64,000 bases of DNA, from positions 5,068 through 69,067 of the forward strand of contig JAZGAD010000010.1 of assembly GCA_036444275.1 (NCBI GenBank). The letters are read 5' to 3'. The translations under genes were made by a program, and so were the position numbers. This stretch comes from Candidatus Hydrothermarchaeales archaeon (GTDB lineage: Archaea; Hydrothermarchaeota; Hydrothermarchaeia; Hydrothermarchaeales; JAZGAD01). The notes beneath the pieces were generated by a model, which made no database searches, was not told where the DNA came from, and saw only the letters and a list, made by a program, of their open reading frames with translations. This document shows, one piece after another, positions 4,622 through 44,335 of the stretch (its first letter is position 1; every line of letters starts with the position of its first letter).

Positions 4622-4972
4622 ATGGATGTAAGGACCAGCTTCGTGATAGCTATTGGGATACTGCTTTTCACGATGTACTACCTAGAGAAAGAAATGGAGA
4701 AGGAGCAGATATTTTGGCTCTTCTCAGGATTAGGAGTTGCTTTTGGACTGGCTTCTGTTTACACAGTGGCAAAAAATATAGCCTCTTATGAGAACTACAT
4801 AACATTCGCCGTTCTCTTCGTCTTGATGGCCATCTTCTATTACGAGGGGGAAGAGGAAAAAGGAGAGGCAAAGGCTAAGGAAGCTGAAGAGGCAGAGGGT
4901 AAGCATAAAGGTAAGCATAAAGGTAAGCATAAGCGCAGGAAGGCGGGCAAGAAAAAGTGGTCCCATGTATAG
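4622..4972 (+). CDS. small membrane protein with a charged C-terminal tail carrying three KGKH repeats
   Basis: Three hydrophobic segments precede an E/K-rich tail. A 12-bp tandem repeat ggtaagcataaa x3 at ~4899-4934 encodes [12 protein letters not shown]. The ORF overlaps the pheS start by 8 nt. Confidence 0.4.
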
Positions 4973-6209
4973 GCTCACCGAAGAAGGCTGCAAGTACCTA
5001 AGGGAAGGTCTTCCCGAAAAAAGACTCGCCCTCCTCTTAAAGGAACCCTTAGAGCTAAGAGAAGCTCAGGAGAAGATAGATAATTTCTCTATAGCACTGC
5101 AGTGGTGCAAGAAGAAGGGCTGGGTGCGATTAGAAGAGGGGAAGCTTCACCTAGTTAAAGAGCTTGAAGTAATTCCTGAGGAAGATGCTCTGAAGCAGGT
5201 CCACGAAGGGGGCGAGGTAGGGGAAGAAGTGCTTTCCATCCTTCTAAGTAGGGGTTTGGTGGAGGAAGTAAGAGAGGACATGCTAAAGAGGGCAAAGAAG
5301 CTGGTTGGCAAAGAAATCACCATACTGCCCGAGGAGCTCATAAGGACCGGTTTGTGGAACAAGGTAAAGTTCAAGCCCTATAATGTGGAGGTGCCCGGAA
5401 AGCGCATCTACTCCGGGAAGAGGCAACCCTATCAACACTTCATTGGAAAGATAAAGAGAAAGCTTGTTGAGCTAGGCTTCAAGGAGATGGCTGGACCGCT
5501 GGTGGAGACTGAATTCTGGAACTTCGACGCACTATACCAGCCTCAGAACCACCCAGCACGGGACTGGACGAGTACCTACCAGCTTAAGTTTCCAAAGCAG
5601 GGAGCACTTCCAAGCGGGGAGGTGGTAGAACGCGTAAAGGCTACCCACGAAGATGGATGGACAACAGGTTCAACGGGATGGAGATATAGATGGGATCCGG
5701 CAAAGGCCATGCGCCTCATGCCCAGAGCTCATGGGACTTGCCTATCTGCTAGGACCCTTGCTTCTGAACCAGAGATCCCTGGGAAGTACTTCGCCATAGC
5801 ACGCTGCTATCGTCCAGATATGCTTGACGCTACACACCTCATCGAGTTTAACCAGATTGAAGGTATAGTGATCGACGAGTCTTTGAACATGAAAAACCTC
5901 CTAGGCATCTTGGAGATCTTCGCAAAAGAAATAGCAGGGGCAGAGAAAGTCAAATTCTTCCCTGATTACTATCCCTTTACTGAACCCTCAGTGCAACTGT
6001 CTGCTCTGCACCCAGAGTTGGGTTGGATGGAGTTCGGTGGCTCGGGCATATTTAGAGAGGAATTAACTAAGCCACTCGGTGTTAGCGTACCTGTGATAGC
6101 TTGGGGTATAGGCATAGATCGCCTGGCCATGTTCAAGCTTGGGATAAAGGACATACGCGATCTCTTCACTCAGGATTTAAAGTGGCTTAGGGAGAGCAAG
6201 GTGGTATAA
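4965..6209 (+). CDS. pheS: phenylalanine--tRNA ligase alpha subunit (archaeal type)
   Basis: Class II aaRS core motifs ([16 protein letters not shown]) and an archaeal-type N-terminal domain. The ORF is immediately followed by pheT. Confidence 0.9.
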
Positions 6210-7874
6210 GTGCCCAAAGTGGAATTTTCTCTTCAAGACCTGAATGAATTGCTAAAGGAGCTTTCACCCAGTGAATTGGAAGAGAGGGGGATCCTCTTCG
6301 CCAAGGGCGAAATAGAGTCGCTGGAGGGCAACCTGGTCAAGGTGGACATCAAGGATACCAACCGCCCTGATCTCTGGAGCGTTGAGGGCATAGCCAGGGA
6401 GCTTAGGGGGCACTACGGCATAGAAAAAGGTCTCCCTGTGTTCGAGGTAAGGAGTTCAGGCATAGAGATGCGCATCGATAGGAAGGTGGAAAGGGTCAGG
6501 CCCAAGGCTGTTGCTGCTGTTGTCAAGGGGCTCAGCTTCAATGATGATAGCATAAAGCAGATGATACAGCTGCAGGAGAAGGTCACTCAGAACTATGGGC
6601 GGAATAGGAGCCTAGTCGCTATAGGCGTTTATGATTGGGCTACACTCAAGCCGCCTATCAGGTACACGACTGTCGCACCAGATGCTATACGTTTCATGCC
6701 TCTAGACTTTGAGGAAGAGCTCACCCCCAGGGAGATCCTTGAGAGGCACCCGAAGGGCAGAGAATTTGGACATTTGATAGAAGGATTCGAGGAATATCCC
6801 TTGATGATTGATTCTGAGGACAACGTGCTCTCAATACCGCCTATAATAAACTCTGCCTACACGGGCAAGGTAACAGAGGCAACGAGAGACGTGTTCATAG
6901 AGGTTACGGGTCACGAAGTAGATAGGATATCTGTAGCACTAAACATACTGGTGGCTGCCCTATCGGATAGAGGCGGCAGAATAGAGAGTGTTGAGGTAGT
7001 ATACCCAGAGACGAGGATCGTCACCCCGGATTTCACCCCTGGGAAGATAACCCTGGATACAGAGGAGTGCAGGAGGATACTGGGGTTAGAGCTGGAGCAG
7101 GAGGAAATGATAGAGCTCTTGGAGAGGGCGCGGTATAGAGCAGTAATAAAGGACGGCAATATCGTAGTGGAATATCCAGGCTACCGTAGGGATATAATGC
7201 ACCAGCGCGACGTGATGGAGGACATAGCGATCGCCTATGACTTGAACCGTATACCGCCAGAGCCACCTGAGCTGAGCACTACCGGTAAAGTAAATGAGAA
7301 GGAGGATTTTGCAGACTTGCTAAGGGTGCTTATGGTCGGCTTGGGCTTTCAGGAAGTACTCACTTTTTCTTTGACCAGTAAAGAGAACCTGTTTGAGAGG
7401 ATGAATGTCGCAGAGGATAGGGTGTGCGAGATAGCGAATCCCATTAGCTCTACTTGGACTGCTTTACGAAACTGGCTCCTCCCAAGCGTTGTGGAATTCT
7501 TAGCCAATAACCTGCACGTGGAGTATCCCCAGTGCGTCTTCGAGGTGGGCGACATAGTAGAGATAGACGAAGGCGAGGAGACGAGGACGAGGAACGTAAA
7601 GAAATTAGCTTGCGCCATAACATCTGGAGAAGCAGGCTATGAGGAGGCATCATCAGTGCTGGATGCTCTTTTTAGAAATCTCGGCTTGGACTACGTGCTG
7701 AAGAGATCAAAGCACGGGAGCTTCATCTCTGGAAGGGTTGCTGAAATCTTCCTGGAGAAAGAGTCCATTGGGATTATAGGAGAGATCCATCCGCAGGTGC
7801 TGAATAACTGGGGCTTGGAAAAACCTGTAGTTGCTTTTGAGTTGAGCTTGGAGCCTTTGATGAAGAGGTTCTGA
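6210..7874 (+). CDS. pheT: phenylalanine--tRNA ligase beta subunit (archaeal type)
   Basis: B3/B4 and B5 domains, 554 aa, with a 1-nt gap after pheS. Confidence 0.9.
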
Positions 7875-7934: not shown

Positions 7935-9191
7935 ATGCCAGACAAATACTTTTTTAATAACCATCTACTTAGTAGGCATATGGATTTTTACCAGGGCTTA
8001 GTGACCAATATCCACGACTTTGGGGGCGATATAGAGGCCAAAAGGAAGTGCCTAGTCGAGATGGCTGAGGAAAGGCCGATTTCCTTGGTGCTACCCATGC
8101 TCTACCGGGAGATAGAGGGCAAGGCCCTTCACAAGATCGTCAGGGACCTAAACACTTGCGACTACGTGAGCCAGGTGTTGATACCTCTAACTGCAAAGAA
8201 CAGTAGCGAATACAGAAATGTTCTAAAGTTCTTTGATCGTCTTAAGCTGCCGCACCTTGTGTTATGGTGCAATGGAAAGAGGGTCATGGGGGTACTAGAT
8301 AATCTCACAGAGGAGGGTATCGATGTGAGAAACATCCTTGGGAAAGGGAGAGATACGTGGATAGCTCTTGGCGTCGCCAGTCTAGATTCCTATGCCATAG
8401 CTCTTCACGACGCTGATATCCTCACGTATACCCCGGATTATCCTGTAAAGCTTCTCTATCCTATAATCGACCCTGATCTGGATTTCATCTTTAACAAGGC
8501 GTACTACGCTAGGATAGGTGACGGCGAGAGACGGATGTACGGACGCGTATTGAGGTTATTCCTTCTTCCACTCTTAAAGGCCCTTCAGAAGAAGGTACGA
8601 TACCAGTCGAGGTTTCTCAGATATCTGCGGTCCTTTAGGTATGCTCTATCTGGAGAATTCGCTCTCACCAGCGACCTGGCATTGAACATAAGCATTCCAG
8701 GAGATTGGGGCCTGGAAATAGGGATCCTCACTGAGGTGTATAGAAGTGCCGCTGTGAAGAGAATCTGTCAGACTGACCTGGGGTTCCATGAGCACAAACA
8801 CCAGAAGATAGGCACGTCGCCTAGTAGGGGCCTGCTCAAGATGGCAGGTGATATAGAAAAATCTCTACTGAGGTCGCTTACTGAAATGGAGGGTATAGAC
8901 ATATCCGAGGCATTCCTCCTCAGCCTTCAAGTCCTATACAGGCGCTTGGCCCAGGAGGACATCTACAGGTACAGTGCAGATGCACAGTTCAACGACATCA
9001 TGTACGACAGACACATGGAGGAGAGCGCTGTGGACACATTCAGCAATGCTATTCTAAAAGCTGGTCGGGAATACGTAAAGAACCCCTTCGGTACCATTGT
9101 CCCCAGCTGGATAAGGGTCACATCGGCTATGCCCGGAATTAGGAACCGGTTGAAGGAAGCTGCATTGGTAGATGCTGATAAACTTGGCTAG
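7935..9191 (+). CDS. GT-A fold glycosyltransferase, mannosyl-3-phosphoglycerate synthase-like (GT55-like, tentative)
   Basis: The 418 aa product has an HDADI (DxD-type) motif in a Rossmann-like context. Its size matches MpgS enzymes. The assignment is from memory of the family and is not alignment-verified. Confidence 0.4.
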   Translation: MPDKYFFNNHLLSRHMDFYQGLVTNIHDFGGDIEAKRKCLVEMAEERPISLVLPMLYREIEGKALHKIVRDLNTCDYVSQVLIPLTAKNSSEYRNVLKFFDRLKLPHLVLWCNGKRVMGVLDNLTEEGIDVRNILGKGRDTWIALGVASLDSYAIALHDADILTYTPDYPVKLLYPIIDPDLDFIFNKAYYARIGDGERRMYGRVLRLFLLPLLKALQKKVRYQSRFLRYLRSFRYALSGEFALTSDLALNISIPGDWGLEIGILTEVYRSAAVKRICQTDLGFHEHKHQKIGTSPSRGLLKMAGDIEKSLLRSLTEMEGIDISEAFLLSLQVLYRRLAQEDIYRYSADAQFNDIMYDRHMEESAVDTFSNAILKAGREYVKNPFGTIVPSWIRVTSAMPGIRNRLKEAALVDADKLG

Positions 9192-9309
9192 GGTCTTTTT
9201 CTATTATTTCATCACAGTTTTAACGAAATTGAGGGTAGTGAAGATAATTCCTATAAGAATAAAATGCATCCCAGATTATTTCATTTCTTTCCGCATCTAA
9301 AGTTGCGTG

Positions 9310-10461
9310 TTATACACTGTTGGGATTTTGGCTTCTTATTAGTTCTTCTGAAAGTTGAATGAACTCTTTTGCCATACGCTTCTTATCAAACATTTCTTCG
9401 ACTCTCTTTCTTCCATTCTCACCAAACTCTTTCGCAAGACTTTGATTGGAGAGAAGTTCAAGGATACGATCTGCTAACTCTACAGGCAACCTATCCTCAT
9501 TCCGATTAATTAAAAATCCTGTTTTGCTGTGAACTACAGACTCTACCATCCCACCAGAGCGTGTGACTATAACCGGATTCCCGCAGGCCATTCCCTCAAC
9601 CGGGCCAAGCCCGAATGGTTCGTTCCCAATGGTCGTGTAGATTAAAATATCACAAAGAGAAACGATTTTAGGAATATCGTGATGGGTATAATCACTTATA
9701 TGGATATTTTCTCCAAGATTGTTATCCTGAATAAATTTATCTATTTCCAAGTCATATCTTGCCAATTCGTCCATATCCTTAAAAATCCTCTTCTTCCGTC
9801 CAGTCAGGACCATTAGCGCTCGAGGAAATTTTTTTATTACGATGGGCATGGACTTAATTGCCGATAATATTCCTTTCCGGGGTAGAAATCTTGCATTGTT
9901 AAGAATTACTTCCCTGCCCTCAAAACCGTATTTTTTCTTTAATTTTTCCTTTTCTTCCTTTGTGCGAGGAGTAAATAGATCAAGATTTATGCCATGCATT
10001 ATTACAGTCCATTTATCGCTTGGGATATTAGGTTTTTTTGAACCCAATGAGTTCTTCATATACTTACTAATTGTAACAAGTCTATCCCAGGAAATTTTTT
10101 CAATTATTTGCCACATAATATCCATTGATCGATCTTTAAAGACATCATTATGGAGAACCAAATAGCAAGGGATGCCTCTTTCAGCGCATGCATCTTTTAA
10201 TGCTCTTGAGAGATCGTAGAAATCCATATGGAGGTTATGAGCCTGTACTAGATTTATTCCCTGATCGTCTAAAAATTTATCAAACATTTGTTTTGAGGTA
10301 TCATAAATATTTTCAAACCCTTCAATAATAGAGGGAACCATTTCATCAACGCGTATAACATTTACTCCCTCTACAACTTCAATGCTTGGAGTTCCTTCAC
10401 AGCTCCCGCAGAGAACATGCACCTCTGCTCCTTGTCTCACCATTTCTGGGCATATGGTCAA
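9310..10461 (-). CDS. glycosyltransferase family 4 (GT-B)
   Basis: C-terminal EPFGLGPVEGMACGNPVIVTRSGGMVE signature (E-x7-E region) of GT4 retaining glycosyltransferases. Confidence 0.8.
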   Translation of the reverse strand: MTICPEMVRQGAEVHVLCGSCEGTPSIEVVEGVNVIRVDEMVPSIIEGFENIYDTSKQMFDKFLDDQGINLVQAHNLHMDFYDLSRALKDACAERGIPCYLVLHNDVFKDRSMDIMWQIIEKISWDRLVTISKYMKNSLGSKKPNIPSDKWTVIMHGINLDLFTPRTKEEKEKLKKKYGFEGREVILNNARFLPRKGILSAIKSMPIVIKKFPRALMVLTGRKKRIFKDMDELARYDLEIDKFIQDNNLGENIHISDYTHHDIPKIVSLCDILIYTTIGNEPFGLGPVEGMACGNPVIVTRSGGMVESVVHSKTGFLINRNEDRLPVELADRILELLSNQSLAKEFGENGRKRVEEMFDKKRMAKEFIQLSEELIRSQNPNSV

Positions 10462-10853
10462 AAGATGCGTCTCAACTCCACCAATAACGGGAGGAAATGC
10501 CCAGTGAATAACCCCAACTTTTAATTTTATATTTTCTCAGCTCCAACGTTAGAGTACGTCACCGATTATTATGTTTATGACCTATATTATACCTTGGTAG
10601 GATGGGCTTCTCATATTTGGGGTGAAGGAGGCGTTGAGGAGCCTTGACATCAGAAGGAGCTACAAAGTCCTAAGGCACTGGATCCAGCGTCTTGGGGTCC
10701 TGCGCTAAAGGCTATTTCGAAAAGGGCGAGGCCAGCATAGCAGTGGCGAACGAGACCAAGTCAAGATAGACTGGAGGTGGTCAAAATCTAAAGTTGACAC
10801 CACCGAGATGATACCGAAAAGTTATATCTAAGGCCGCCTAGAGTCTAGAGTAT

Positions 10854-12017
10854 ATGGCCAAGGATATACTGGTGGGCATACCGGCAATAAACGAAGAGGC
10901 GACTATAATCCATGTTTTGAATACTGTAGCTGAGGGCTTAAGCGACAACTTTCCCGAGTACAAGTCCATCATATTTGTGGCAGATGGTGGTTCCACAGAT
11001 AGAACTGTGCGGCTGGCAGAGTCTTTTAGGGATAGGTTTAACATAAAAAAGGTTGTGGAAAGGTCTAAGGGAATAGGAAAGGGCGAGGCTGTCCTCAGGA
11101 TCATGAAGATGGCTCGCGCGATGAAGGCGAGCATGGTTGCGATTATAGACAGCGACTTGCTGAGCATCCAACCTTCTTGGGTGGACTTTCTCCTTAGACC
11201 CTTGGCCTTCGGCATGGCTGATTTCACAACTCCCAGATATATCCGAGACAAGCATGACGGCGGTATAACCAAGCACCTGAGCTATCCAATGATAACCGCC
11301 CTATTCGGCAAGGAGATCAGACAACCCATGGGTGGGGAATTCGGCATGAGCCTAGGTCTGGTCAAGAAGTGCCTTAAAAACCCTTTTTTCCCCAAGGATT
11401 TCGGCATTGACACATTCATGACGTCAGTGGCCCTTGCTAATAATTATAGGATCCATGATGTCCCCTTGGGACCAAAGTTCCATGAGTCCACCCAGAAATA
11501 CCTAGCGCCGGAGAATCACCTCTTACCCATGTTCGAACAGGTGTGTACAGCCCTTTTTAACATGATGAAGTACTACGAGAGTAACTGGAGGTCCAGGGTT
11601 ATAACAGTAGGGCGCACACGACCTAGGAGGATTAACAGGTATAAAGGGGCACTGCCAACGCCTACCAAAGTAGATCCCGAGTGCTTCTATAAAGCGGCGG
11701 TGATGAGGATAGACGAGTACGAGGAAGCCATGAAAGAGACATTTGGAAAGAGTGGATCAGACACAGTGAAGAGCATGGTGGAAAGCAAGACTATGCCCTC
11801 TGAGTTCTGGATCGAGAGCATTTTTAGATGCGCTGCTCACTATAAGAAGACGATGTCTCCAGATACCGTAAAGGTCTTAGCAGGGTTGTGGCTGACGAGA
11901 TATGCAAATTTTGTTGAGGAGACTAAAAACATGAATCTCTACGGGACGGAAGTATTGGTGTACGATCAGATGCTATCATTTCTGAATAAAAGGGACTATC
12001 TTTTGAGCATATACTGA
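10854..12017 (+). CDS. GT81-type glucosyl-/mannosyl-3-phosphoglycerate synthase-like glycosyltransferase
   Basis: Blocks VGIPAINEEATIIHV, FVADGGSTDRT, GKGEAVLRI, MVAIIDSDL and GGEFGMS match the block order I recall for the mycobacterial GpgS signature (PALNEE, DSGSTDDT, GKGEAL, IDSDL, SGEY). The ~130 aa C-terminal extension is unassigned. Confidence 0.6.
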   Translation: MAKDILVGIPAINEEATIIHVLNTVAEGLSDNFPEYKSIIFVADGGSTDRTVRLAESFRDRFNIKKVVERSKGIGKGEAVLRIMKMARAMKASMVAIIDSDLLSIQPSWVDFLLRPLAFGMADFTTPRYIRDKHDGGITKHLSYPMITALFGKEIRQPMGGEFGMSLGLVKKCLKNPFFPKDFGIDTFMTSVALANNYRIHDVPLGPKFHESTQKYLAPENHLLPMFEQVCTALFNMMKYYESNWRSRVITVGRTRPRRINRYKGALPTPTKVDPECFYKAAVMRIDEYEEAMKETFGKSGSDTVKSMVESKTMPSEFWIESIFRCAAHYKKTMSPDTVKVLAGLWLTRYANFVEETKNMNLYGTEVLVYDQMLSFLNKRDYLLSIY

Positions 12018-12063
12018 CTATTTCTGATATAAACAAAGTCATTACAAGAGGCTGGATGATAAA

Positions 12064-12714
12064 ATGAACAATGACAAATTGAAGCTGGCTGCCTTCGACA
12101 TAGACGGCACATTATTAGAAGGGCGGAGTATCTTCCACTTAGGCAGGAGCTTTGGCTTCTTAAAAGAGGCTGAAGAACTCATCTACAGTAGCCTCCCCTT
12201 ATACAAGGTCAGCGAGGGGCTTGCCAAGCTCATGAGGGGTATATCCCTTGAAGATGCCCTAGAGGTCGTTAAGCGCATTCCTCTCATGAATGGGGCTGAG
12301 TATACCATTGCCGAGCTTAGATGCAGGGGGTACAAGCTGGTGATTATAACAGATAGTTACGACTTCGTCGCTGCGTACTTCAAAAGGCTGCTAAAGATGG
12401 ACGCTACTTCCTCTAACAAACTATTGGAAGAGGACAAGGTCTTTACCGGAGAGCTTATTATGCCTAGGGGCTGCACGAGCGAGGAAGAGTGCAATTATCC
12501 TTCAGTATGCAAGCAAGCGGCTCTCCTAGGCTTCATGAAACAGTATGGGGTCTCTAAGAAGAACACAATTGCTGTAGGGGACAATAAGCCAGACCTATGC
12601 ATGCTTCAAGAGGCTGGCATGGGCATAGCCTTCAACCCAAAGGTTCCAGAGCTGGAGAAAGCGGATGTGGTTATAAGGGAAAAGGATATGAGAAGAATCC
12701 TGGATTATATATGA
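12064..12714 (+). CDS. HAD-IB family phosphatase (phosphoserine phosphatase-like)
   Basis: Motif I is AAFDIDGTL. The C-terminal GDNKPDLCMLQEAGMGIAFNPK resembles the SerB-type GDGxNDxxM...G.GIAF motif. Confidence 0.7.
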   Translation: MNNDKLKLAAFDIDGTLLEGRSIFHLGRSFGFLKEAEELIYSSLPLYKVSEGLAKLMRGISLEDALEVVKRIPLMNGAEYTIAELRCRGYKLVIITDSYDFVAAYFKRLLKMDATSSNKLLEEDKVFTGELIMPRGCTSEEECNYPSVCKQAALLGFMKQYGVSKKNTIAVGDNKPDLCMLQEAGMGIAFNPKVPELEKADVVIREKDMRRILDYI

Positions 12715-12741
12715 GATGAGGCCGCTAAGCCGCTGAGTAAA

Positions 12742-14109
12742 ATGTTTGGAGCTATTAAGAACCGGAAAGAGCTCATAGATACAGGTGTGTCTGAAGCCGA
12801 TAAAAAGGCAAGACGATTAACCATTGAAATTCTAGAAGCTGGCCTGAAGGCCGCAGATCCACGAAAAGCCGTGAAAAAGGTGCTGTCTGTTAGAGATGAG
12901 AACCTCGTCGTAAAAGGCAAGGCTTTCAGCCTGCACGATGTGGATAGAATATACGTCGTTGGCGCTGGAAAGGCCAGTGGCGCAATGGCAGAGGCGGTAG
13001 AACAGGTTTTGGGGCGGAGAATTACTGGGGGTTATGTGAATATATTGAAAGGCACCTCTGACATGTTCAAAGTCAGCAAGGTAGTCCTAAACGAGGCGAG
13101 CCATCCAATACCTGACGAAAACGGCGTTAGGGGTACTAAGAAAATCCTGCGTTTAGTCGAGAACACTGGCAACCGCGATCTAGTTTTGGTCCTTATATCC
13201 GGAGGGGCGTCTGCCTTGATGCCCTTGCCTGCAGAAGGTCTTTCCATGAAGGACAAGCAGAGAGCAACGAACCTGCTCCTGCAGTCTGGGGCAGTTATTG
13301 AAGAGATAAACGTGGTTAGAAAACATCTGTCAGGGGTTAAAGGCGGGCAGCTTGCTAGGGCCATTTATCCTGCACGTTGTATCGGGCTTTTGCTATCTGA
13401 CGTTGTCGGCGATGACATAAGCACCATAGGCTCAGGTCCAACCGCTCCAGATAAAAGTACTTATGGCGATGCCTTCAACGTGCTTAAAGGCTACGACCTA
13501 GTAGAAGGCTTACTTCGTATCGCCCAGCACCTTGAAAAAGGTATGAAGGGTTTAATTCCAGAGACGCCGAAACCAGATGATGAGAGTTTTACTGCTACGG
13601 AGAACTTCATCATAGGCAGCAACGAGGCAACGCTAAAAGAAATGGCACTACGAGCAGGGGAGTTGGGGCTTAAAGCAAAAATACTGGATGCTCAAATGAC
13701 CGGGGAGGCCAAAGAGGCAGGGCGTAAATTCGCTGAACAGATAAACTTGTGGTCAGCGTCTGGGGGTGGTACTGCCTTATTGCAAGGTGGAGAGACCACT
13801 GTGACGGTTAAGGGCGCAGGAAAAGGAGGCAGGAATCAAGAGTTCGTGCTGGGTGCCCTCTTATCTCTCCGGGAGAAAGGCGTTGCCATTGCGTCTATGG
13901 GTACCGATGGGGTAGATGGCTCAAGTGATGCTGCTGGTGCTATCATTGACGGAAACTCGCAGCGAATGGGAAGAAGAATGAGCCTAGATGCAGAGAGATA
14001 CCTAGTCAAGAACGACTCAAACACCTATTTTTCTTTGCTGAAAGAATGTATTGTCACAGGGCCAACCGGTACAAACGTCAATGATATAGTAGTTGGTGTC
14101 GTGGTATGA
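12742..14109 (+). CDS. glycerate 2-kinase (MOFRL family)
   Basis: A DUF4147-like N-terminal domain and a MOFRL-like C-terminal domain. Conserved blocks are VVGAGKASGAMA, LISGGASALMP, RKHLSGVKGGQLA and GGETTVTVKGAGKGGRNQEF. Confidence 0.8.
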   Translation: MFGAIKNRKELIDTGVSEADKKARRLTIEILEAGLKAADPRKAVKKVLSVRDENLVVKGKAFSLHDVDRIYVVGAGKASGAMAEAVEQVLGRRITGGYVNILKGTSDMFKVSKVVLNEASHPIPDENGVRGTKKILRLVENTGNRDLVLVLISGGASALMPLPAEGLSMKDKQRATNLLLQSGAVIEEINVVRKHLSGVKGGQLARAIYPARCIGLLLSDVVGDDISTIGSGPTAPDKSTYGDAFNVLKGYDLVEGLLRIAQHLEKGMKGLIPETPKPDDESFTATENFIIGSNEATLKEMALRAGELGLKAKILDAQMTGEAKEAGRKFAEQINLWSASGGGTALLQGGETTVTVKGAGKGGRNQEFVLGALLSLREKGVAIASMGTDGVDGSSDAAGAIIDGNSQRMGRRMSLDAERYLVKNDSNTYFSLLKECIVTGPTGTNVNDIVVGVVV

Positions 14110-14210: not shown

Positions 14211-15401
14211 ATGTTCGTTAGCTTGTATAATTTTTTGGATGATGTAAGAGGCGGCTTCCACTTCGGCGAGGTGAAGATGAATGATACTACGCTGCGTGAT
14301 GGTGAACAGACGCCAGGTGTAGTATTCTCCTTAGACGAGAAGGTCGAGATAGCCCGTTTACTGGATGGAATAGGTGTGCAGCAGATAGAGGCAGGAACGC
14401 CGGCGATGTCCCCCGAGGAGGAGAATGCAGTAGCCTCTGTAGCCAAGGAGGGCCTAAATGCTAGCACCATGGGCTGGGCGCGTGCTGTTCAAAGCGATGT
14501 TGATGCTGTCCTTAGAACAGACGCAGATGCCATCGCAATATCCATCGCAACGTCTGATATCCACCTCCAGTACAAGCTGAAGATGACCCGGGAGGAGATA
14601 CTTGACAGAGCGACGCAGATGGTGGAGTACGCTAAGGACCATGGCTTATACATATCCTTGAATTCTGAAGACGCTACTAGGACTGACTTTGCATTCCTCA
14701 AGGAATTCGGTCTTAAGGGTAAGGAAGCCGGCGCCGACAGGCTCAGGGTATGCGATACTCTTGGCGTATTGATTCCTGCTTCAAGCAAATACCTCGTAGC
14801 TAAGGTCTTAGAAGAGATCAAGATTCCTGTGGAGATTCATGCCCACAACGATTATGGTTTAGGAGTTGCCAATGCATTAGCGGCCTTTGAAGCTGGAGCA
14901 GAGTGGGCGTCCACTACGGTAAACGGTCTCGGTGAGAGGGCCGGTAATTCCTCGCTGGAGGGGATCATCATGAGCCTGTTGAAGCTGTATAACTTGGACG
15001 TGCCCTTCAATATAAACAAGCTCTTCGAGATATCCCGCTACGTAGAGAAGGCAAGTGGCATCCCGGTGCCTGTGAATAGAAGCGTTGTTGGCAGCCACAT
15101 GTTCACTCATGAGTCAGGTATTCATGTGGATGGGGTACTAAAATTCCCCTACACCTATGAGTCCTTTTTACCTGATGAGATAGGTGCGAGTAGGCGTATA
15201 GTAATAGGTAAGCACTCAGGGAAGCACGCAGTGTGGGACAAGCTTACGGAGTTGGGTATAGACACAGATAAGGAGCAGCTCATCGCCATCCTGGAAGCTG
15301 TGAAGCAGTCTAGTATGGAGCGCAAGAGTGCTCTAACAGATGCCGAGCTAAAGAAGATAGCTTTGGGGATCATAGGGAAGGCCGAGAAGATACAGAATTA
15401 G
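14211..15401 (+). CDS. homocitrate/isopropylmalate synthase family enzyme without a LeuA regulatory domain (homocitrate synthase or Re-citrate synthase candidate)
   Basis: The conserved N-terminus is [10 protein letters not shown]. The H-x-H metal site appears as EIHAHNDYGLGVANALAA. The 396 aa ORF has no C-terminal LeuA dimer domain. The likely true start is the internal Met at ~14277 ([11 protein letters not shown]). Confidence 0.7.
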   Translation: MFVSLYNFLDDVRGGFHFGEVKMNDTTLRDGEQTPGVVFSLDEKVEIARLLDGIGVQQIEAGTPAMSPEEENAVASVAKEGLNASTMGWARAVQSDVDAVLRTDADAIAISIATSDIHLQYKLKMTREEILDRATQMVEYAKDHGLYISLNSEDATRTDFAFLKEFGLKGKEAGADRLRVCDTLGVLIPASSKYLVAKVLEEIKIPVEIHAHNDYGLGVANALAAFEAGAEWASTTVNGLGERAGNSSLEGIIMSLLKLYNLDVPFNINKLFEISRYVEKASGIPVPVNRSVVGSHMFTHESGIHVDGVLKFPYTYESFLPDEIGASRRIVIGKHSGKHAVWDKLTELGIDTDKEQLIAILEAVKQSSMERKSALTDAELKKIALGIIGKAEKIQN

Positions 15402-15412
15402 CCTGCATTGTT

Positions 15413-16294
15413 TTGCTGAATGGAGGTTTTATATTGAAGATAACCATAGTGGGTGCTGGCAACATCGGCGCCGCTACTGCATTTTTATTATCAGAACGAA
15501 AGCTGTGCGGCCAGCTTGCCTTGATCGATGTAGTTGCTGATAAAGCCGCAGGGCTCGCTCTAGATTTGCTTCACTGTAAAGCGCAGCATGGTGTAGACAT
15601 CGTTGGAGGTACTGACTACAGTTTAGCTAGAGATTCGGATATGGTAGTGATAACCGCTGGGATACCCAGGATGCCCGGGGATAGCAGGCTTGACCTCCTT
15701 AAAAAGAACTTTGGAATAATGAAGGGAGTAATCCAAAACCTAGTACAATATACTAATGGCATAGTCTTAGTAGTATCCAATCCCGTGGATGTCCTTACCT
15801 ACATAGCCTTGAAGGAATCAGGCATGGCTAAGGAAAAGGTTGTTGGCCTGGGCACAATGCTTGACACTCTCAGGCTTAGATCTTTACTCCCCGAGTCGTT
15901 GGGCATTGATCCTTCAAGTGCATTCGTCATTGGGGAGCATGGGGATAGTATGCTACCTGTATCTGGCGCAGGGGATAGGGAAGCACTACTGAAGTTTTTC
16001 AATGAGGTTCGTTTCAGCGCAGCCGAGGTCATAAGGATGAGGGGCTATACCGCTCTAGCACCTTCCATGGCTATTGCAGAGGTCGCTGAGGCAGTTGTTA
16101 GAGACCAAGGAAAGGTCCTCCCTCTTTCAGTCTATCATGAAGAGTATGACCTATGCATAGGCGCACTAGCAAAGGTTGGTAGAGAAGGTGCTACTATGGT
16201 GAATATGAAACTCACGGAAGAAGAGGAGAGGGATTTCCTGAAGTCCGTGCAGGTATTAAAGAAAGCACTTGCCGACTTGGGTTATCAAGCCTAG
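15413..16294 (+). CDS. mdh: LDH-like malate dehydrogenase (L-2-hydroxyacid dehydrogenase family)
   Basis: NAD-binding ITIVGAGNIGAATAF, substrate-binding GIPRMPGDSRLDL and catalytic IGEHGDS. The start may be the TTG at ~15434. Confidence 0.75.
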   Translation: MLNGGFILKITIVGAGNIGAATAFLLSERKLCGQLALIDVVADKAAGLALDLLHCKAQHGVDIVGGTDYSLARDSDMVVITAGIPRMPGDSRLDLLKKNFGIMKGVIQNLVQYTNGIVLVVSNPVDVLTYIALKESGMAKEKVVGLGTMLDTLRLRSLLPESLGIDPSSAFVIGEHGDSMLPVSGAGDREALLKFFNEVRFSAAEVIRMRGYTALAPSMAIAEVAEAVVRDQGKVLPLSVYHEEYDLCIGALAKVGREGATMVNMKLTEEEERDFLKSVQVLKKALADLGYQA

Positions 16295-16371
16295 CTTTTA
16301 AACGGCTTTGGCTTCCCTACCTTTTTATATAAAACTTAATCATAAACGCTAACTGCACTGGAGCCTTTAAT

Positions 16372-18285
16372 ATGTTGAATCTGACTCAGAAGATAATAAA
16401 GGAGCACCTCGTAGAGGGAGAGCTTCGCCCCGGAGAGGGGATCGGCATAGGGATAGATCAGACCCTGACACAAGATGCCACTGGTACGCTGACTTATCTC
16501 CAGTTCGAGGCATTAGCCCTGCCGTGTGTGAAAACCAAGCTTTCTGTAAGCTACGTGGACCACAATACTCTTCAAACCGGCTTCGAGAATGCCGACGACC
16601 ACAGGTATCTCCAGAGCGTTGCAGCTAAATATGGCATCTATTTCTCTAAGCCTGGAAACGGTATATGCCACCAGGTGCACTTGGAGAGATTTGCTGTGCC
16701 TGGCGAGACGCTGTTAGGATCGGACAGTCATACCCCCAACGCTGGTGCACTCGGGATGCTCGCAGTAGGTGCAGGCGGCTTGGATGTGGCTATGGTTATG
16801 GCTGGTATGCCCTTTTACTTGGAGATGCCTAAGGTATTAGGCGTCAAACTTAAGGGCAAGCTCGCGCCGTGGGTAGCTGCTAAGGATGTCATTTTAGAGC
16901 TCCTTCACAGGATGGGTGTTAGTGGAGGTGTCAGCAAGATAATCGAATACTATGGCGAAGGTGTTGCTTCCCTATCGGTTACGCAGAGGGCTACCATAAC
17001 CAATATGGGAGCTGAATTAGGGGCTACAAGCTCGATATTTCCGTCAGATGCCCAAACAAAGGAGTACTTGAAGAGGCAGGGACGCGCCGATGTATGGAAG
17101 CAGCTGGAGGCAGATAACGATGCCGAGTACGATGAAATGCTGGAGATAGACCTCTCCTCTCTTGAGCCCATGATAGCCCTACCTTCGAGTCCTGGCAATG
17201 TTCGGAAGGTGAGTGAAGTAGAAGGCTTAAAAGTGCACCAAGTTCTCGTCGGCAGCTGCAATAACTCCTCCTGCAGCGATTTAATGATGACTGCAGCTGT
17301 GCTCAAGGATAGGAAGATTCATCCTGATGTGAGCTTTGCCGTATCTCCTGGCTCCAGACAGGTTCTCTTGGATATAGCTAGTAACAACTCTTTGTCTGCT
17401 ATGGTAAAAGCTGGAGCTAGGATACTGGAGAGTGCATGCGATGGTTGTATAGGCATGGGGCAAGCACCCCCTACCGATGTAGTGTCCCTCCGCACTTATA
17501 ACAGGAATTTTTCTGGGAGGAGCGGTACCAAGGACGACAAGGTCTATCTATGCAGTCCTGAAGTAGCGATTGCAAGCGCTGTCAATGGCGTGCTCACAGA
17601 TCCACGGAAGCTTGGAGATGCACCTAAAATAGAGCTTCCTGAGAGGTTTGATATAGATGATTCTATGATTCTGCCACCGGTTGAGAAGCCCGACGAAGTC
17701 GGGATAATCAAGGGTCCAAATATAAAGCCCTTGCCCTTGCGTGGACCCCTTGTGGATGTGCTAGTGGGTGAGGTTTTGCTTAAGGTCGGTGATAACGTGA
17801 CTACCGATGCTATAATGCCTGCTGGCGCAAAGGTGCTTCCATTGAGGAGTAATATTCCTGCGATAAGCGAATATGCCTTCTCTAACGTTGCTCCGGACTT
17901 TGTGAGACGTGCAAAGGAGAAGAAAGGCGGCTTTATCGTGGGCGGTATTAATTATGGTCAAGGCTCATCTAGGGAGCATGCTGCTGTAGCACTCATGTAC
18001 CTAGGGGTCAAGGCAGTTTTAGCTAAGTCCTTCGCGAGGATCCACAGGGCGAATCTCATAAACTTTGGGATAGTGCCGCTTGAGTTCGCCAATGCTGACG
18101 ACTATGAGCAGGTGATGGCTGGAGACACGATAGAAATGGGAATCAAAAATGCAATTGGAAGTGGCCGAATATCGATCTTTAATAAAACAAATAAAATAAA
18201 TGCTAGCTGCGACTTAAGCCCACGTGAGGCGAAAGTCCTGCTAGCTGGAGGGTTACTGAACTATACGAAGGGTTTGAGCAGGTAA
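16372..18285 (+). CDS. aconitase family protein (single polypeptide carrying catalytic and swivel domains)
   Basis: 637 aa with GICHQV, SDSHT and CNNSSCSD-type Fe-S ligand regions plus a C-terminal swivel domain (GGINYGQGSSREHAA). Confidence 0.8.
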   Translation: MLNLTQKIIKEHLVEGELRPGEGIGIGIDQTLTQDATGTLTYLQFEALALPCVKTKLSVSYVDHNTLQTGFENADDHRYLQSVAAKYGIYFSKPGNGICHQVHLERFAVPGETLLGSDSHTPNAGALGMLAVGAGGLDVAMVMAGMPFYLEMPKVLGVKLKGKLAPWVAAKDVILELLHRMGVSGGVSKIIEYYGEGVASLSVTQRATITNMGAELGATSSIFPSDAQTKEYLKRQGRADVWKQLEADNDAEYDEMLEIDLSSLEPMIALPSSPGNVRKVSEVEGLKVHQVLVGSCNNSSCSDLMMTAAVLKDRKIHPDVSFAVSPGSRQVLLDIASNNSLSAMVKAGARILESACDGCIGMGQAPPTDVVSLRTYNRNFSGRSGTKDDKVYLCSPEVAIASAVNGVLTDPRKLGDAPKIELPERFDIDDSMILPPVEKPDEVGIIKGPNIKPLPLRGPLVDVLVGEVLLKVGDNVTTDAIMPAGAKVLPLRSNIPAISEYAFSNVAPDFVRRAKEKKGGFIVGGINYGQGSSREHAAVALMYLGVKAVLAKSFARIHRANLINFGIVPLEFANADDYEQVMAGDTIEMGIKNAIGSGRISIFNKTNKINASCDLSPREAKVLLAGGLLNYTKGLSR

Positions 18286-18297
18286 AGGACTGCACAT

Positions 18298-18444
18298 TTA
18301 TTTAGCAGCGCCGATCCTGAACATTTTCGTTCCACAGTTAGGGCAGACTCCCTGTACTGCGGGCTTGCCATTTTTGAGAGTTACCTGCTTCGCGTCCTTT
18401 ATTTCCCTTTTAGCCTTACATTTCACACAATATCCTGTTACCAT
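18298..18444 (-). CDS. small zinc-ribbon protein (48 aa, DUF5679-like)
   Basis: The minus-strand ORF translates MVTGYCVKCKAKREIKDAKQVTLKNGKPAVQGVCPNCGTKMFRIGAAK with a CxxC...CxxC arrangement. It is not in the track (<60 aa). Coordinates +/-2. Confidence 0.45.
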   Translation of the reverse strand: MVTGYCVKCKAKREIKDAKQVTLKNGKPAVQGVCPNCGTKMFRIGAAK

Positions 18445-18628
18445 TTAATCAACTCGCATCTTCGTAGGCGTTATCGATATAAAAAACTTCCTATTTTGGT
18501 TTCCAGCCGCATAAAGAAATAGAGAAATAGATTTTTGACAGCATGCGATGAGGGTAGGACGAAGAACCGCAGCCTCCTCTAGCAGGCCTTGTAGTACTGG
18601 ACCATTACCCCCTGTGATGCGTATAATG

Positions 18629-19087
18629 TTAATGGTTGATTATCTTCAAAGCCTCTTCTTTAAATTCGTCAAAGTCGTTAAGGTGGTTTTCTAGGACATC
18701 AAAGACCTTTTCATCTTCTATGACTTCATAATGATGAACCAAGATATTTCTCATCCTCTTCATACTTTTAAGATTAGCAACCGTTTTTTCTGAGAGGTCT
18801 TTGGATAATTTATCTACTGCACTTTCGTCTCCGGCAGGAAGGCCCAGCTTCTTCATCTTAACCAGCAGGTATACAACGTCCGTAACTATTTCAATTAAGA
18901 GGTGCAGCAACCTCTCGCATACCCTCTTTGTCTGGAGGCTTGACTTGTATTCCTCAAGACTTTTCGGTATTATGGACCTTAACTCCTCCAGGTAAGTGTC
19001 AAGGAGGTCCAGCTTGGTGAGAATCCTGTCCCTATCCAAGGGCCACACTCTCCAGATAAGCTCTGTATCTCGGGTAATAGTCCTCAA
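18629..19087 (-). CDS. HepT-like toxin (DUF86, HEPN domain)
   Basis: An R-x4-H-x-Y HEPN motif (RNILVHHY). It overlaps the upstream MNT gene, and the true start is probably a non-ATG codon inside the overlap. Confidence 0.75.
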   Translation of the reverse strand: MRTITRDTELIWRVWPLDRDRILTKLDLLDTYLEELRSIIPKSLEEYKSSLQTKRVCERLLHLLIEIVTDVVYLLVKMKKLGLPAGDESAVDKLSKDLSEKTVANLKSMKRMRNILVHHYEVIEDEKVFDVLENHLNDFDEFKEEALKIINH

Positions 19088-19514
19088 AATACCTTGAAGT
19101 TTTGATGCTTATGTCGTAGAGGGCATCTTCATCTTTGCAAAGGAGAACCTTCCCCTCTTTTAAAACCCGGATCTGTATGTAGAGAGGGAGCTCTTGATAT
19201 GTGTGGATGTCCAGGTCGAACTTTCCTATGTACTCAAGACCTTTTTTTGCCAAGTTCACCGTTTCTTCTCTGGATGGAGCAACGACCAGACAGACATCTA
19301 TATCCCTGGAGGCCTCATCCCTTACATAGCTGCCGAAGAGGATGACAGCTAGGATATCCTTGTCTTTCTTCGCTTTTTTGGTGAGCTTTTGAATTTGGTC
19401 TTTTATTGGTGGCATGATTGAAATTTTGCTTTGGTAGCACTTAAAAGTTGGGTTAGATGATGAGGGATGCGTATGGAATGGCCAATTACTGCGGGCTTGG
19501 GAAAGCTTTCCCAA
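19032..19514 (-). CDS. MNT-type nucleotidyltransferase antitoxin (cognate of HepT)
   Basis: GSYVRDEASRDIDVCLVV fits the minimal nucleotidyltransferase motif GSxxRGxxxxxSDIDL. The likely true start is the internal Met at ~19415 (MPPIKDQIQ). Confidence 0.75.
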   Translation of the reverse strand: MGKLSQARSNWPFHTHPSSSNPTFKCYQSKISIMPPIKDQIQKLTKKAKKDKDILAVILFGSYVRDEASRDIDVCLVVAPSREETVNLAKKGLEYIGKFDLDIHTYQELPLYIQIRVLKEGKVLLCKDEDALYDISIKTSRYFEDYYPRYRAYLESVALG

Positions 19515-19564
19515 TTTCTTTACTCATAGTAAAACTTCTTTACTTTATGTAGGCGGAAGACAAG

Positions 19565-19795: not shown

Positions 19796-19868
19796 GCTAT
19801 GTGGTGGATACAGTTAACTCTAACTTTCTATACACATGCCTAAATATAATAAAAGCAGGTTATAATGC

Positions 19869-20732: not shown

Positions 20733-20787
20733 TTATGTATTCTACGCACCCGGCGCTAAATACTTCAGCGTTATTACATCATTTGCT

Positions 20788-44258: not shown

Positions 44259-44335
44259 AGATAAGAATGATGTGGCTTGGGAAGGTCGTCAACGGACCTT
44301 CCATCCACCTGAAATTAGTAGGGAGGGCTTGAACA

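Follow-up and report, generated by a model that had tools for sequence, protein, structure and literature searches.

A probable glucosylglycerate locus of Candidatus Hydrothermarchaeales with a SerB-like HAD-IB phosphatase

Gene content of the locus

The window analyzed here is a stretch of 64,000 nucleotides from a Candidatus Hydrothermarchaeales MAG contig. The five open reading frames of the original prediction were recovered at the same coordinates and on the same strands, with strong family matches, although no window protein reached an NCBIfam equivalog cutoff (GpgS 581 against 700 bits, SerB 112 against 144, glycerate kinase 248 against 550).

The first gene, on the forward strand, had been read as a 418-aa, MpgS-like protein (7935..9191). 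The HDADI motif noted in it is indeed present (…ALHDADILTY…, including the DAD), but the MpgS assignment fails, with no match to TIGR02460 or PF09488. The product scores 580.7 bits against the GpgS_Meth model NF040724 (cutoff 700), covering 1-400 of its 402 positions. Identity is 52-59% to proteins named GpgS at source in Methanosarcinales, ANME-1 and Thermoplasmatota, and 41% to the product of the gene adjoining ggs in the Persephonella marina locus. The most likely start is the ATG at 7980, not 7935, giving a 403-aa protein (7980..9191); the database copy and all close homologs measure 400-403 aa, and the 45-nt extension from 7935 (15 codons, probably untranslated) contains a TATA-like CTTTTTTAATAA. 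These matches assign the gene to the Methanococcoides/Persephonella-type glucosyl-3-phosphoglycerate synthases (gpgS).

On the reverse strand, a retaining GT4 glycosyltransferase gene occupies 9310..10530 (406 aa if the ATA at 10530-10528 initiates). The product of 9310..10461 matches Pfam Glycos_transf_1 (1e-28) and Glyco_transf_4 (5e-14); in the PDB it comes closest to sucrose-phosphate synthase (6kih) and PimB. Upstream of the listed reading frame, the sequence continues in frame with a conserved N-terminus (KLKVGVIHWAFPPVIGGVETH), which matches the N-termini of homologs. No canonical start codon was found for it, only the ATA, and because of this start codon the GT4 may be inactive. Initiation at TTG 10461 (383 aa) or ATG 10443 (377 aa, the database call) would forfeit the N-terminal strand and the PPVIGGVE loop. 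The intergenic region 10531..10853, which separates the GT4 gene from the divergent ggs-HAD-MOFRL genes, contains TATA-like boxes in both directions, such as CGAAAAGTTATATCTAA at ~10816-10832, 22-38 nt before ATG 10854; these are read as candidate promoters. No Rfam family matched within this region.

The forward-strand gene at 10854..12017 (387 aa; GT-A domain plus C-terminal helical domain) had been likened to GT81 GpgS. On closer comparison this likeness proved weak and confined to the superfamily level: PRK13915 gives 65.9 bits (cutoff 262). The product matches Pfam Glycos_transf_2 (4e-13) and aligns over residues 4-387 with P. marina Ggs (P0210; 35% identity, E=1e-66), which NCBI names 'glucosylglycerate synthase Ggs [Persephonella]'. 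It is thus classified by homology as a relative of the single-step glucosylglycerate synthase Ggs, not as a GT81 GpgS. In a neighbor-joining tree it falls in a mostly archaeal clade, sister to the clade of the characterized enzyme, and 35% identity leaves room for a different donor or acceptor.

The AlphaFold model of this protein (pLDDT 90.4) finds its best PDB matches in the mannosylglycerate synthase (MGS; GT78) of Rhodothermus marinus (2y4j/2bo4, TM 0.75/0.77, both domains). The residues K76, D99-S-D101 and I138-T139 align with MGS K76, the D100/D102 DxD motif and I138/T139, and QPMGGE, D186 and H210 align with MGS L163, D192 and H217; the roles of the MGS residues are taken from PMC2581804. 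Donor, metal and glycerate-carboxylate residues are conserved. Like MGS, the Ggs-like enzyme would work in a single step on free D-glycerate, but the two sequences are only 16% identical, MGS uses GDP-mannose to transfer a mannose, and the window protein did not reach a match to the Pfam MGS_GT model. Mycobacterial GpgS (GT81; Rv1208; 4y6n) has the retaining GT-A core in common with it (28% identity, TM 0.48/0.65 for the GT-A domain), as well as the DSD motif and a Val/Ile-Thr carboxylate clamp. GT81 enzymes lack the C-terminal helical domain, however, and PRK13915 gives the window proteins 65-66 bits (cutoff 262).

The last gene, at 12742..14109 on the forward strand, encodes a 455-aa MOFRL/DUF4147 protein (Pfam DUF4147 1e-80, MOFRL 2e-34), a probable D-glycerate 2-kinase. 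It scores 298 bits against PH0495 (1x3l) and 284 bits against TM1585, 'glycerate kinase, putative' (2b8n), and is 39% identical to the MOFRL protein of the P. marina locus. MOFRL genes lie directly downstream of ggs-like genes in eleven further loci (L002-L005, L015, L035, L038, L039, L058, L064, L090). The kinase had been thought to make the composition unusual, a view contradicted by the P. marina locus and by the report that glycerate kinase genes are frequent neighbors of glucosylglycerate genes (PMC7178133). A glycerate-consuming kinase is an odd neighbor for a glycerate-requiring synthase.

A HAD-IB phosphatase predicted to replace the MpgP-type enzyme

Between the ggs-like and MOFRL genes, the forward-strand gene at 12064..12714 encodes a 216-aa phosphatase with a SerB-like fold, the new part of the locus and its most interesting point. 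It matches the HAD-IB model TIGR01488 with 55.6 bits (cutoff 45) and is collinear over 212 residues with the phosphoserine phosphatase (PSP) of M. jannaschii (MJ1594; 1f5s; 84 bits), having the HAD-IB fold and the DxDxT nucleophile motif in common with it. Against the serB model TIGR00338 it scores 112 bits, under the cutoff of 144. PSP Glu20 is replaced by Arg21 and the SGGF motif by TDSY, and across 150 relatives the Arg21/TDSY pair and the Glu/SGGF pair of true SerB show near-perfect covariation. The expectation of a SerB-like rather than MpgP/GpgP-type phosphatase was thus correct.

The genomic partners of this subfamily are glycosyl-3-phosphoglycerate synthases, not serine-pathway genes. 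At least 12 loci have a member of the subfamily beside gpgS, and 19 have one immediately after mpgS (TIGR02460, 487 bits). Fusion of the phosphatase with a GpgS domain of GT81-like type (PRK13915, 172-195 bits) was seen in ~25 loci; among the top 150 cluster representatives, 23 are such fusions. Public names for these fusions vary between 'HAD-IB family phosphatase', 'SerB' and 'GpgS'. The bifunctional MpgS/MpgP (NF011072, PRK14502) is a precedent for synthase-phosphatase fusion of the same logic, although it joins a GT55 MpgS to an MpgP-type HAD-IIB domain, whereas the present fusions pair HAD-IB with a GT81-like domain. In the loci read, the subfamily did not co-occur with a canonical MpgP-type phosphatase. 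We predict, from residues and genomic partners, that it acts as a glycosyl-3-phosphoglycerate phosphatase, and it may represent an unrecognized enzyme class for the glucosylglycerate pathway. [quoted passage not shown]

Comparison with related loci and proposed pathway

A bacterial gene cluster for the stress protectant and compatible solute 2-O-α-glucosylglycerate (glucosylglycerate, GG) is already known, and the window would hold an archaeal copy. In the available accounts, the P. marina cluster comprises GpgP, a MOFRL gene, Ggs and GpgS (Costa 2007 and Fernandes 2007, via PMC3240985 and PMC3736172). The locus with the exact P. marina Ggs (L089) carries genes for an MpgP-type phosphatase, MOFRL, Ggs and GpgS, tightly packed on one strand. 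The GpgS (41%), Ggs (35%) and MOFRL (39%) families are the same in both clusters. The P. marina host is an Aquificota bacterium and its phosphatase an MpgP-type HAD-IIB protein (Hydrolase_3/S6PP, 272 aa), whereas the window, from an archaeon, has the SerB-like HAD-IB enzyme, an additional divergent GT4, another gene order and gpgS in a separate transcription unit. As gpgS is cut off from the other three genes by the opposite-strand GT4 gene, the locus is not a single operon.

Among 80 genome loci retrieved with a Ggs-like profile, gpgS lies nearby in ~27 and MOFRL in 8, and the Ggs-like/MOFRL/GpgS linkage is seen repeatedly across phyla. MscS channels (6 loci) and CdaA-like genes (5 loci, called by eye from sequence) are further repeated companions. 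Close relatives (76-80% identity) have contiguous GpgS-Ggs-MOFRL. More distant relatives have either the order HAD-Ggs-MOFRL-GpgS (L090) or HAD-Ggs…MOFRL…GpgS, the latter interrupted by an OpuA-type osmoprotectant transporter. The window shares the direct adjacency of HAD and ggs-like genes with L006, L007, L090, L091 and L092. The closest relatives' loci lack both HAD and GT4, which are thus variable members of the cluster. The gene clustering is far beyond chance, and the same families come together again in dozens of unrelated genomes.

Reportedly, Methanococcoides burtonii makes its solute by a two-step GpgS/GpgP pathway (Costa, 2006), and we know of no Ggs or MOFRL partner reported for that organism. 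Its GpgS belongs to the same sequence family as that of the window (full-length model match, 581 bits) and both hosts are archaea, although the window protein scores under the 700-bit equivalog cutoff. The partner of M. burtonii GpgS is an MpgP homolog (PMC3240985, Table).

The evidence comprises sequence homology, the predicted fold, conservation of catalytic residues, synteny and, in other loci, domain fusions. On this basis the locus is likely to be the Hydrothermarchaeales counterpart of the P. marina GG cluster, with two routes to GG and a link to the glycerate pool. In the two-step route, GpgS would join NDP-glucose and D-3-phosphoglycerate to glucosyl-3-phosphoglycerate (GPG), from which the HAD-IB enzyme would remove the phosphate to give GG, filling the role of the MpgP-type HAD-IIB phosphatase of P. 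marina and M. burtonii. In the one-step route, a type described for Ggs (PMC3736172), the Ggs-like enzyme would transfer glucose from its NDP donor straight onto free D-glycerate, and the reaction may also proceed in reverse, freeing glycerate. The MOFRL kinase would convert D-glycerate to 2-phosphoglycerate. The pool of free glycerate, whether destined for Ggs or released when GG is broken down, would thereby be connected with glycolysis and, through it, with the GpgS substrate. What each enzyme acts on, which way the Ggs and kinase reactions run, and a role in osmo- or thermoprotection are inferences. The dual-pathway logic would be common to both clusters, and the one unusual feature is the exchange of the usual phosphatase for a serine-phosphatase look-alike. 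The original call of a glycosyl-glycerate solute locus combining synthase, phosphatase and glycerate metabolism thus stands, supported by homology to characterized enzymes and synteny with P. marina; its gene-level assignments do not.

Alternative products and enzyme roles

A possible but less probable reading is that the end product is not plain GG but mannosylglycerate, mannosylglucosylglycerate, glucosylglucosylglycerate or GG as an oligosaccharide primer. In its extended form, GPG or GG would receive a further sugar from the GT4 and/or the Ggs-like enzyme, leaving a diglycoside phosphate for the HAD-IB enzyme to dephosphorylate. The model is the mannosylglucosylglycerate pathway of Petrotoga mobilis and Rhodopirellula baltica, in which GpgS works with MggA, a GT4 acting on GPG, and the HAD-like MggB, and in which mggA-mggB gene pairs exist (PMC3736172). 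The R. baltica MggA has 530 aa; MggB has 324 aa and no significant similarity to known phosphatases (PMC3736172). Since GpgS, a GT4 and a HAD phosphatase occur both there and in the window, extension of GPG to a diglycoside is plausible, and among the extra glycosyltransferases it is possible only for the GT4, an accessory gene whose product may, by analogy with MggA, extend GPG or GG by one hexose. In three Bathyarchaeia loci with 4-5 glycosyltransferases (L037, L056, L147), the nearest GT4 context homologs (28% identity) directly precede a HAD-IB gene of this type. GT4 and HAD are both present in the window and both absent from L002-L005, and the Ggs-like clade is separate from the characterized one, with two paralogs in L006. 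Against this, the conserved GT4 N-terminus has no canonical start codon, and the identity of the GT4 to other locus-associated GT4s is only 21-29%. Thermoplasmatota have HAD-GpgS-Ggs without a GT4, and HAD with MpgS or as the GpgS-like fusion also occurs without one; given such GT4-free settings, a diglycoside substrate is not needed.

Other readings reassign the phosphatase, leaving GPG dephosphorylation as the preferred role. 3-Phosphoglycerate is the 2-hydroxy analog of phosphoserine, and loss of the amino-binding Glu20 (Arg21) and adjacency to the ggs-like gene in the window and the five loci named above would suit a 3- or 2-phosphoglycerate phosphatase feeding D-glycerate to the single-step synthase. 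This is unlikely: such an enzyme would starve the synthase of 3-phosphoglycerate at the 19 mpgS loci and in the ~25 GpgS-like fusions, would form a futile cycle with the MOFRL kinase, and would not be expected to swap one-for-one with the MpgP-type phosphatase in gpgS loci, as the HAD-IB enzyme does. An ordinary PSP, lying with MOFRL by chance as central-metabolism genes beside two glycosyltransferases, is more improbable still. Its best characterized relatives are PSPs (1f5s, 84 bits; TIGR00338, 112 bits), central-metabolism genes follow downstream (HMGL-like, malate dehydrogenase, aconitase) and the closest relatives lack HAD, but a chance SerB is contradicted by the unreached SerB cutoff, by the covarying Arg/TDSY replacements and by repeated adjacency or fusion to three glycosyl-3-phosphoglycerate synthase types, and MOFRL belongs to the P. 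marina locus. Highly improbable is a role of the glycosyltransferases in protein N-glycosylation, dolichol-phosphate sugar or cell-envelope synthesis, as might be read from source annotations ('glycosyltransferase involved in cell wall biosynthesis') and from the weak Ggs-like matches to AglJ and Pfam Glycos_transf_2. AglJ reaches 45 bits against a cutoff of 325, and Dol-P-Man synthase and ArnC match the GT-A core only (TM ~0.45, rmsd 14-16 Å); the match to MGS extends over the entire protein. The Ggs-like protein is homologous over its full length to a characterized soluble Ggs, the GpgS match is near-equivalog, and the neighboring genes are solute-related, not envelope-related.

Gene organisation and the two predicted synthases

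An ORF listing and HMM scans recovered all five ORFs of the original prediction, together with their broad families, and its overall reading of the region as a glycosyl-glycerate solute locus is right. Downstream of pheS and pheT (4965-7874, + strand), the locus comprises a GpgS-type GT-A protein (7935/7980-9191, +), a GT4 (9310-10461, −), a second, Ggs-like GT-A protein (10854-12017, +), a HAD-IB phosphatase (12064-12714, +) and a DUF4147+MOFRL protein (12742-14109, +). Genes for an HMGL-like synthase, a malate/lactate dehydrogenase and an aconitase follow the MOFRL gene on the same strand. The locus can be recognised as a variant of a system already characterised, not as a new kind, and its variant features are a non-orthologous phosphatase and an accessory GT4.

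An upstream region of its own separates gpgS from pheT, and GT4 and ggs diverge from an intergenic region of ∼320-390 bp with TATA-like boxes, which were read by eye only in this archaeal host. Separated by gaps of 46 bp and 27 bp, respectively, the ggs, HAD and MOFRL genes probably form a single transcription unit. No Rfam family was found at gathering scores in the locus, including the divergent intergenic region; the whole window gave only two tRNA genes, both elsewhere (292-365, −, and 25070-25142, +).

The first GT-A gene (7980-9191) is predicted to encode a GpgS, making glucosyl-3-phosphoglycerate (GPG) from NDP-glucose and D-3-phosphoglycerate (3-PG). The product scores 580.7 bits against the NCBIfam model for the Methanococcoides-type GpgS (NF040724, model positions 1-400 of 402), below the cutoff of 700, and its DxD motif is present as HDADI. 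A search of 5.8 billion proteins, in which 2,907 relatives were scored, gave 52-59% identity over 95-96% of the length to GpgS-named proteins from Methanosarcinales, ANME-1 and Thermoplasmatota. The start was set at ATG 7980 because the database copy begins there (403 aa), homologues measure 400-403 aa, and the 45-nt extension upstream contains a TATA-like CTTTTTTAATAA. The original prediction had likened the longer ORF (7935-9191) to MpgS; GpgS takes its place, as neither this protein nor the second GT-A protein matches the GT55 MpgS models (TIGR02460 and PF09488) at E≤0.01. A genuine MpgS from the comparison locus L093 scores 487 bits on TIGR02460. On the GT81 GpgS model (PRK13915/NF010496, cutoff 262), the 7935 product reaches only 65.1 bits.

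The second GT-A protein (10854-12017) is a predicted homologue of Ggs, the single-step glucosylglycerate synthase. Its residues 4-387 align at 35% identity (E=1e-66) with residues 29-416 of P0210, listed at NCBI as "glucosylglycerate synthase Ggs [Persephonella]". P0210 is in turn 76% identical to a family member from Aquificota whose gene adjoins a GpgS gene in locus L068. [quoted passage not shown] This protein had been likened to a GT81 GpgS, a membership rejected on its PRK13915 score of 65.9 bits against the cutoff of 262.

Structural comparison further places the protein beside mannosylglycerate synthase (MGS, GT78). The Ggs-like family profile matches GT81 GpgS over the GT-A core only (1.5e-14), and its match to MGS includes the C-terminal domain (1e-12). 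The AlphaFold model (pLDDT 90.4, pTM 0.89) finds Rhodothermus marinus MGS (2y4j) as its best Foldseek match, over both domains (TM 0.75/0.77), followed by GT81 GpgS over the GT-A domain only. In the profile alignment, K76, D99-S-D101, I138-T139, QPMGGE, D186 and H210 align with MGS K76, D100/D102, I138/T139, L163, D192 and H217, residues with roles in an ion-pair network, as metal ligands, at the β-face carbonyl and in the glycerate-carboxylate clamp (PMC2581804). The clamp (I138/T139) is kept, although it is also common to 3-PG-using GpgS. The protein thus has a predicted GT78 fold (GT-A plus C-terminal helical domain) and its key residues, even though it does not reach the Pfam MGS_GT sequence model.

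In a neighbour-joining tree, the window protein groups with mostly archaeal sequences, in a clade that is sister to the one holding Persephonella marina Ggs. Given this placement, its exact donor and acceptor specificity can only be predicted. An N-glycosylation or dolichol-phosphate role is rejected: the AglJ model TIGR04182 gives 45.3 bits against a cutoff of 325, and DPM synthase and ArnC match the model of the Ggs-like protein in the GT-A core only (TM ∼0.45, rmsd 14-16 Å). Two paralogous Ggs-like genes lie side by side in three comparison loci (L006, at 7986-9248 and 10001-11170, L033 and L075), which hints at sub-functionalisation within the family toward a different donor or acceptor.

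The HAD-IB phosphatase and its synthase partners

The useful new lead of the locus is its phosphatase. The description of this protein as SerB-like and not of the MpgP/GpgP type proved correct: it scores 84 bits against the Methanocaldococcus jannaschii phosphoserine phosphatase (PSP), and the MpgP HAD-IIB model TIGR01486 is absent among its 22 family matches. The MpgP-type neighbour from locus L073 reaches 209 bits on the MPGP family model, above its cutoff of 165.

The protein also departs from ordinary SerB. Its score on the SerB model TIGR00338 (112.1 bits) falls below the cutoff of 144.15. Where three aligned PSPs have …xET/VI… after motif I, it carries Arg21, and its motif II reads TDSY in place of the SGGF of PSP. 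The position corresponds to Glu20 of M. jannaschii PSP, which we take to bind the amino group of the substrate. Arg21 is invariant in nine locus-associated HAD-IB homologues. Among the best 150 representatives drawn from 1.84 billion proteins, this position was readable in 113: Arg occurs in 71 and Ser in 13, both paired with [ST]D[SG]Y, and Glu occurs in 20, mostly with SGGF and in lower-ranked sequences. The sub-cutoff score, the Arg21/TDSY combination and a distribution linked to synthase genes together indicate that it is not an ordinary SerB.

Genomic context provides the evidence for that linkage. Loci in which GpgS adjoins a Ggs-like gene have either an MpgP-type phosphatase (11 loci plus P. 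marina) or the HAD-IB type (∼11 loci, including a recurrent HAD-GpgS-Ggs arrangement in Thermoplasmatota), and the two types were never seen together in the GpgS/Ggs-like loci compared. A search of metagenome contigs with the HAD alignment, from which 80 loci were kept, extended these associations. The HAD gene lies directly upstream of a window-type GpgS gene in at least 12 of the 80, and in 19 it immediately follows a genuine GT55 MpgS gene (TIGR02460 487 bits, cutoff 351). The order MpgS then HAD-IB, with no MpgP gene, is found in metagenome loci L093-L097, L104-L109, L111, L113, L114, L116, L119 and L122. In ∼25 of the 80, the HAD domain forms the C-terminal half of a 456-506-aa fusion, the other half being a GT81-like GpgS domain (172-195 bits on PRK13915). 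No MpgP-type gene was found in these GpgS-, MpgS- or fusion-type loci.

Of the best 150 cluster representatives, 23 are fusions of a GT81-like domain to HAD-IB. Such proteins occur in Sediminibacterium (Bacteroidota; for example the 459-aa WP_324205898.1) and Micrarchaeota. Examples with the Arg/SDSY-type HAD-IB are found in L098, L110, L117, L124, L129, L130, L133 and others (proteins P0342, P0343, P0355 and others). The names given to the fusions at source are inconsistent ("HAD-IB family phosphatase", "phosphoserine phosphatase SerB", "glucosyl-3-phosphoglycerate synthase", "glycosyl transferase family 2"), and the window protein itself goes by "HAD-IB family phosphatase" in databases.

Adjacency to three non-orthologous synthases, combined with repeated fusion, is the classic signature of a cognate glycosyl-3-phosphoglycerate phosphatase, and this role is a well-supported prediction for the HAD-IB protein, with a reach beyond this genome. 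Such a recruitment fits chemically, since the 3-phosphoglycerate moiety of GPG is a 2-O-substituted analogue of phosphoserine and the presumed amino-binding residue has been lost. The enzyme might instead be a phosphoglycerate phosphatase that feeds free D-glycerate to Ggs; this reading is disfavoured, as the pairs with MpgS and the fusions with GpgS speak against it.

No description of a SerB-like GPG phosphatase was found in the literature searched, which is not in itself proof of novelty. A 2025 survey reports haloarchaea with gpgS and without gpgP (PMC12029414). On the reading as a glycosyl-3-phosphoglycerate phosphatase, we put forward, at about even confidence, a joint proposal. HAD-IB would be a widespread, unrecognised third class of such phosphatases, alongside the HAD-IIB enzymes of MpgP type and the histidine-phosphatase type of mycobacteria, derived from PSP through remodelling of its amino-acid pocket (Glu→Arg and SGGF→TDSY). 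It would serve both GpgS and MpgS, occur fused to GpgS-like domains in the two lineages with fusions, and explain some of the lineages with gpgS but "no gpgP"; the Ggs-MOFRL pair may in addition act as a reversible valve. If the subfamily is the missing phosphatase, the annotation of glucosyl- and mannosylglycerate pathways would improve in many archaea and bacteria.

Synteny, the probable glycerate kinase and the accessory GT4

The closest characterised arrangement is that of P. marina. Locus L089, which carries the exact P. marina Ggs, encodes an MpgP-type phosphatase (272 aa), a MOFRL protein (432 aa), Ggs (417 aa) and a window-type GpgS (403 aa), tightly packed on one strand. Its proteins share 36-41% identity with their window counterparts; the phosphatases differ, that of P. 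marina being MpgP-type whereas that of the window is the SerB-like HAD-IB. The window, like its relatives, carries the families of this association between Ggs, gpgS, a phosphatase and MOFRL. GpgS, Ggs and MOFRL are contiguous in Hydrothermarchaeales relatives at 76-80% identity, which have neither GT4 nor HAD. A more distant relative (L006) has a Ggs paralogue, HAD, Ggs and GpgS, and L090 has HAD-Ggs-MOFRL-GpgS. In loci L007 and L008, an OpuA-type ABC transporter separates HAD-Ggs from MOFRL … GpgS. This osmoprotectant transporter (OpuAC, ABC_tran, 2× BPD_transp_1), between the Ggs-like and MOFRL genes, lies at 11672-14848 in L007 and at 10148-13324 in L008.

A profile scan for Ggs-like proteins, with one genome per species, returned at least 590 relatives, and 80 loci were kept. 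Near the Ggs-like gene, GpgS occurs in ∼27 of these, MOFRL in 8, the window-type HAD in 8 and the MpgP-type phosphatase in 13. Six loci have MscS channels and five have CdaA-like genes (called by eye from sequence, with no family scan); all these counts are lower bounds because many contigs are short. The MscS channels recur beside Thermoplasmatota loci and the CdaA-like genes beside Desulfobacterota loci. The dual-route glucosylglycerate (GG) cluster of Persephonella, MOFRL kinase included, is thus a conserved module common to bacteria and archaea, and the uncultured Hydrothermarchaeales gain a concrete, testable stress-solute pathway.

The MOFRL protein (12742-14109) matches the Pfam families DUF4147 (1e-80) and MOFRL (2e-34), and we take it to be a D-glycerate 2-kinase. 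Its PDB matches are Pyrococcus horikoshii PH0495 (1x3l, 298 bits) and Thermotoga maritima TM1585 (2b8n, 284 bits, deposited as "glycerate kinase, putative"), both of which are presumably experimentally characterised kinases. Two NCBIfam models were not reached (NF041176, 248 bits against a cutoff of 550; NF040791, 230 bits against 670). A glycerate kinase had been regarded as foreign to the canonical pathway, a view that its membership of the P. marina reference cluster contradicts. A GH13 review (PMC7178133) likewise describes genes for glucosylglycerate phosphorylase as "frequently accompanied by" those for glycerate kinase, GpgS or GpgP.

Two roles can be envisaged for the kinase. It could act as a valve between the pool of free glycerate, the substrate of Ggs, and the pool of phosphoglycerate, the substrate of GpgS. 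Alternatively, it could salvage the glycerate released by GG breakdown, possibly through Ggs running in reverse. In a Ggs-MOFRL valve, GG and NDP would yield NDP-glucose and glycerate, which the kinase would convert to 2-phosphoglycerate, and the solute would be drained without a hydrolase or a phosphorylase.

The GT4 (9310-10461, −) matches both Glycos_transf_1 and Glyco_transf_4 and is a typical retaining GT4, with sucrose-phosphate synthase and PimB as its best PDB matches. Its start is unusual (region 9310-10542, −). The listed ORF (TTG 10461, 383 aa) and the database call (ATG 10443, 377 aa) both omit an in-frame, stop-free N-terminal KLKVGVIHWAFPPVIGGVETHL, which matches the N-termini of homologues (e.g., MKTIGILHFSCPPVIGGVE). 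At the expected Met position only ATA is present (10530-10528), with no ATG, GTG or TTG, two codons after a TGA. Near-cognate initiation, loss of the start codon, an error in the MAG consensus or truncation of the protein may explain this.

GT4s near Ggs-like genes elsewhere form a loose single-linkage group and are 21-29% identical to the window GT4, a comparison that yielded no link to MggA or MggS. In the GT-rich Bathyarchaeia loci L037, L056 and L147, its nearest context homologues directly precede a HAD-IB gene of the window type. According to PMC3736172, the GPG-mannosylating enzyme MggA belongs to GT4; by this analogy, extension of the solute to a diglycoside by the window GT4 is possible. 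Two of the Bathyarchaeia loci (L037 and L056) are six-gene clusters of a GT4, HAD-IB, a 469-aa GT81/GpgS-like protein, another GT-A, a second GT4 and a Ggs-like protein, a content that points to a glycerate-primed oligosaccharide and not to a simple solute.

Other features of the window

A low-GC island (36-44% against ∼47%) occupies 41695-55451 and opens with a phage-type integrase (41695-42450). It encodes a 466-aa protein (42858-44258) resembling bifunctional IPCT/DIPPS of di-myo-inositol-phosphate synthesis (NF041135, 195 bits against a cutoff of 580), two GT4s (44336-46502), a GH130 β-1,2-mannobiose-phosphorylase-like protein (48889-50058), a GT2 (54654-55451) and several ORFs without a family. 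Possibly the island is a further cluster for a solute or glycan, gained by horizontal transfer.

Downstream of the MOFRL gene, an 876-878-aa TPR + β-propeller protein follows directly in comparison loci L002 and L003, and after an 80-aa ORF in L005. The window homologue (22366-25017, 883 aa) is displaced by ∼8 kb. The intervening stretch (14211-22000) holds the HMGL-like synthase, malate/lactate dehydrogenase and aconitase genes, a ROK kinase, a zinc alcohol dehydrogenase and a HepT/MNT toxin-antitoxin pair (18629-19514). Further along the window are a second LeuA-type HMGL gene (25180-26739), a CetZ tubulin homologue (26781-28016) and a pyruvoyl-dependent arginine decarboxylase (28114-28665).
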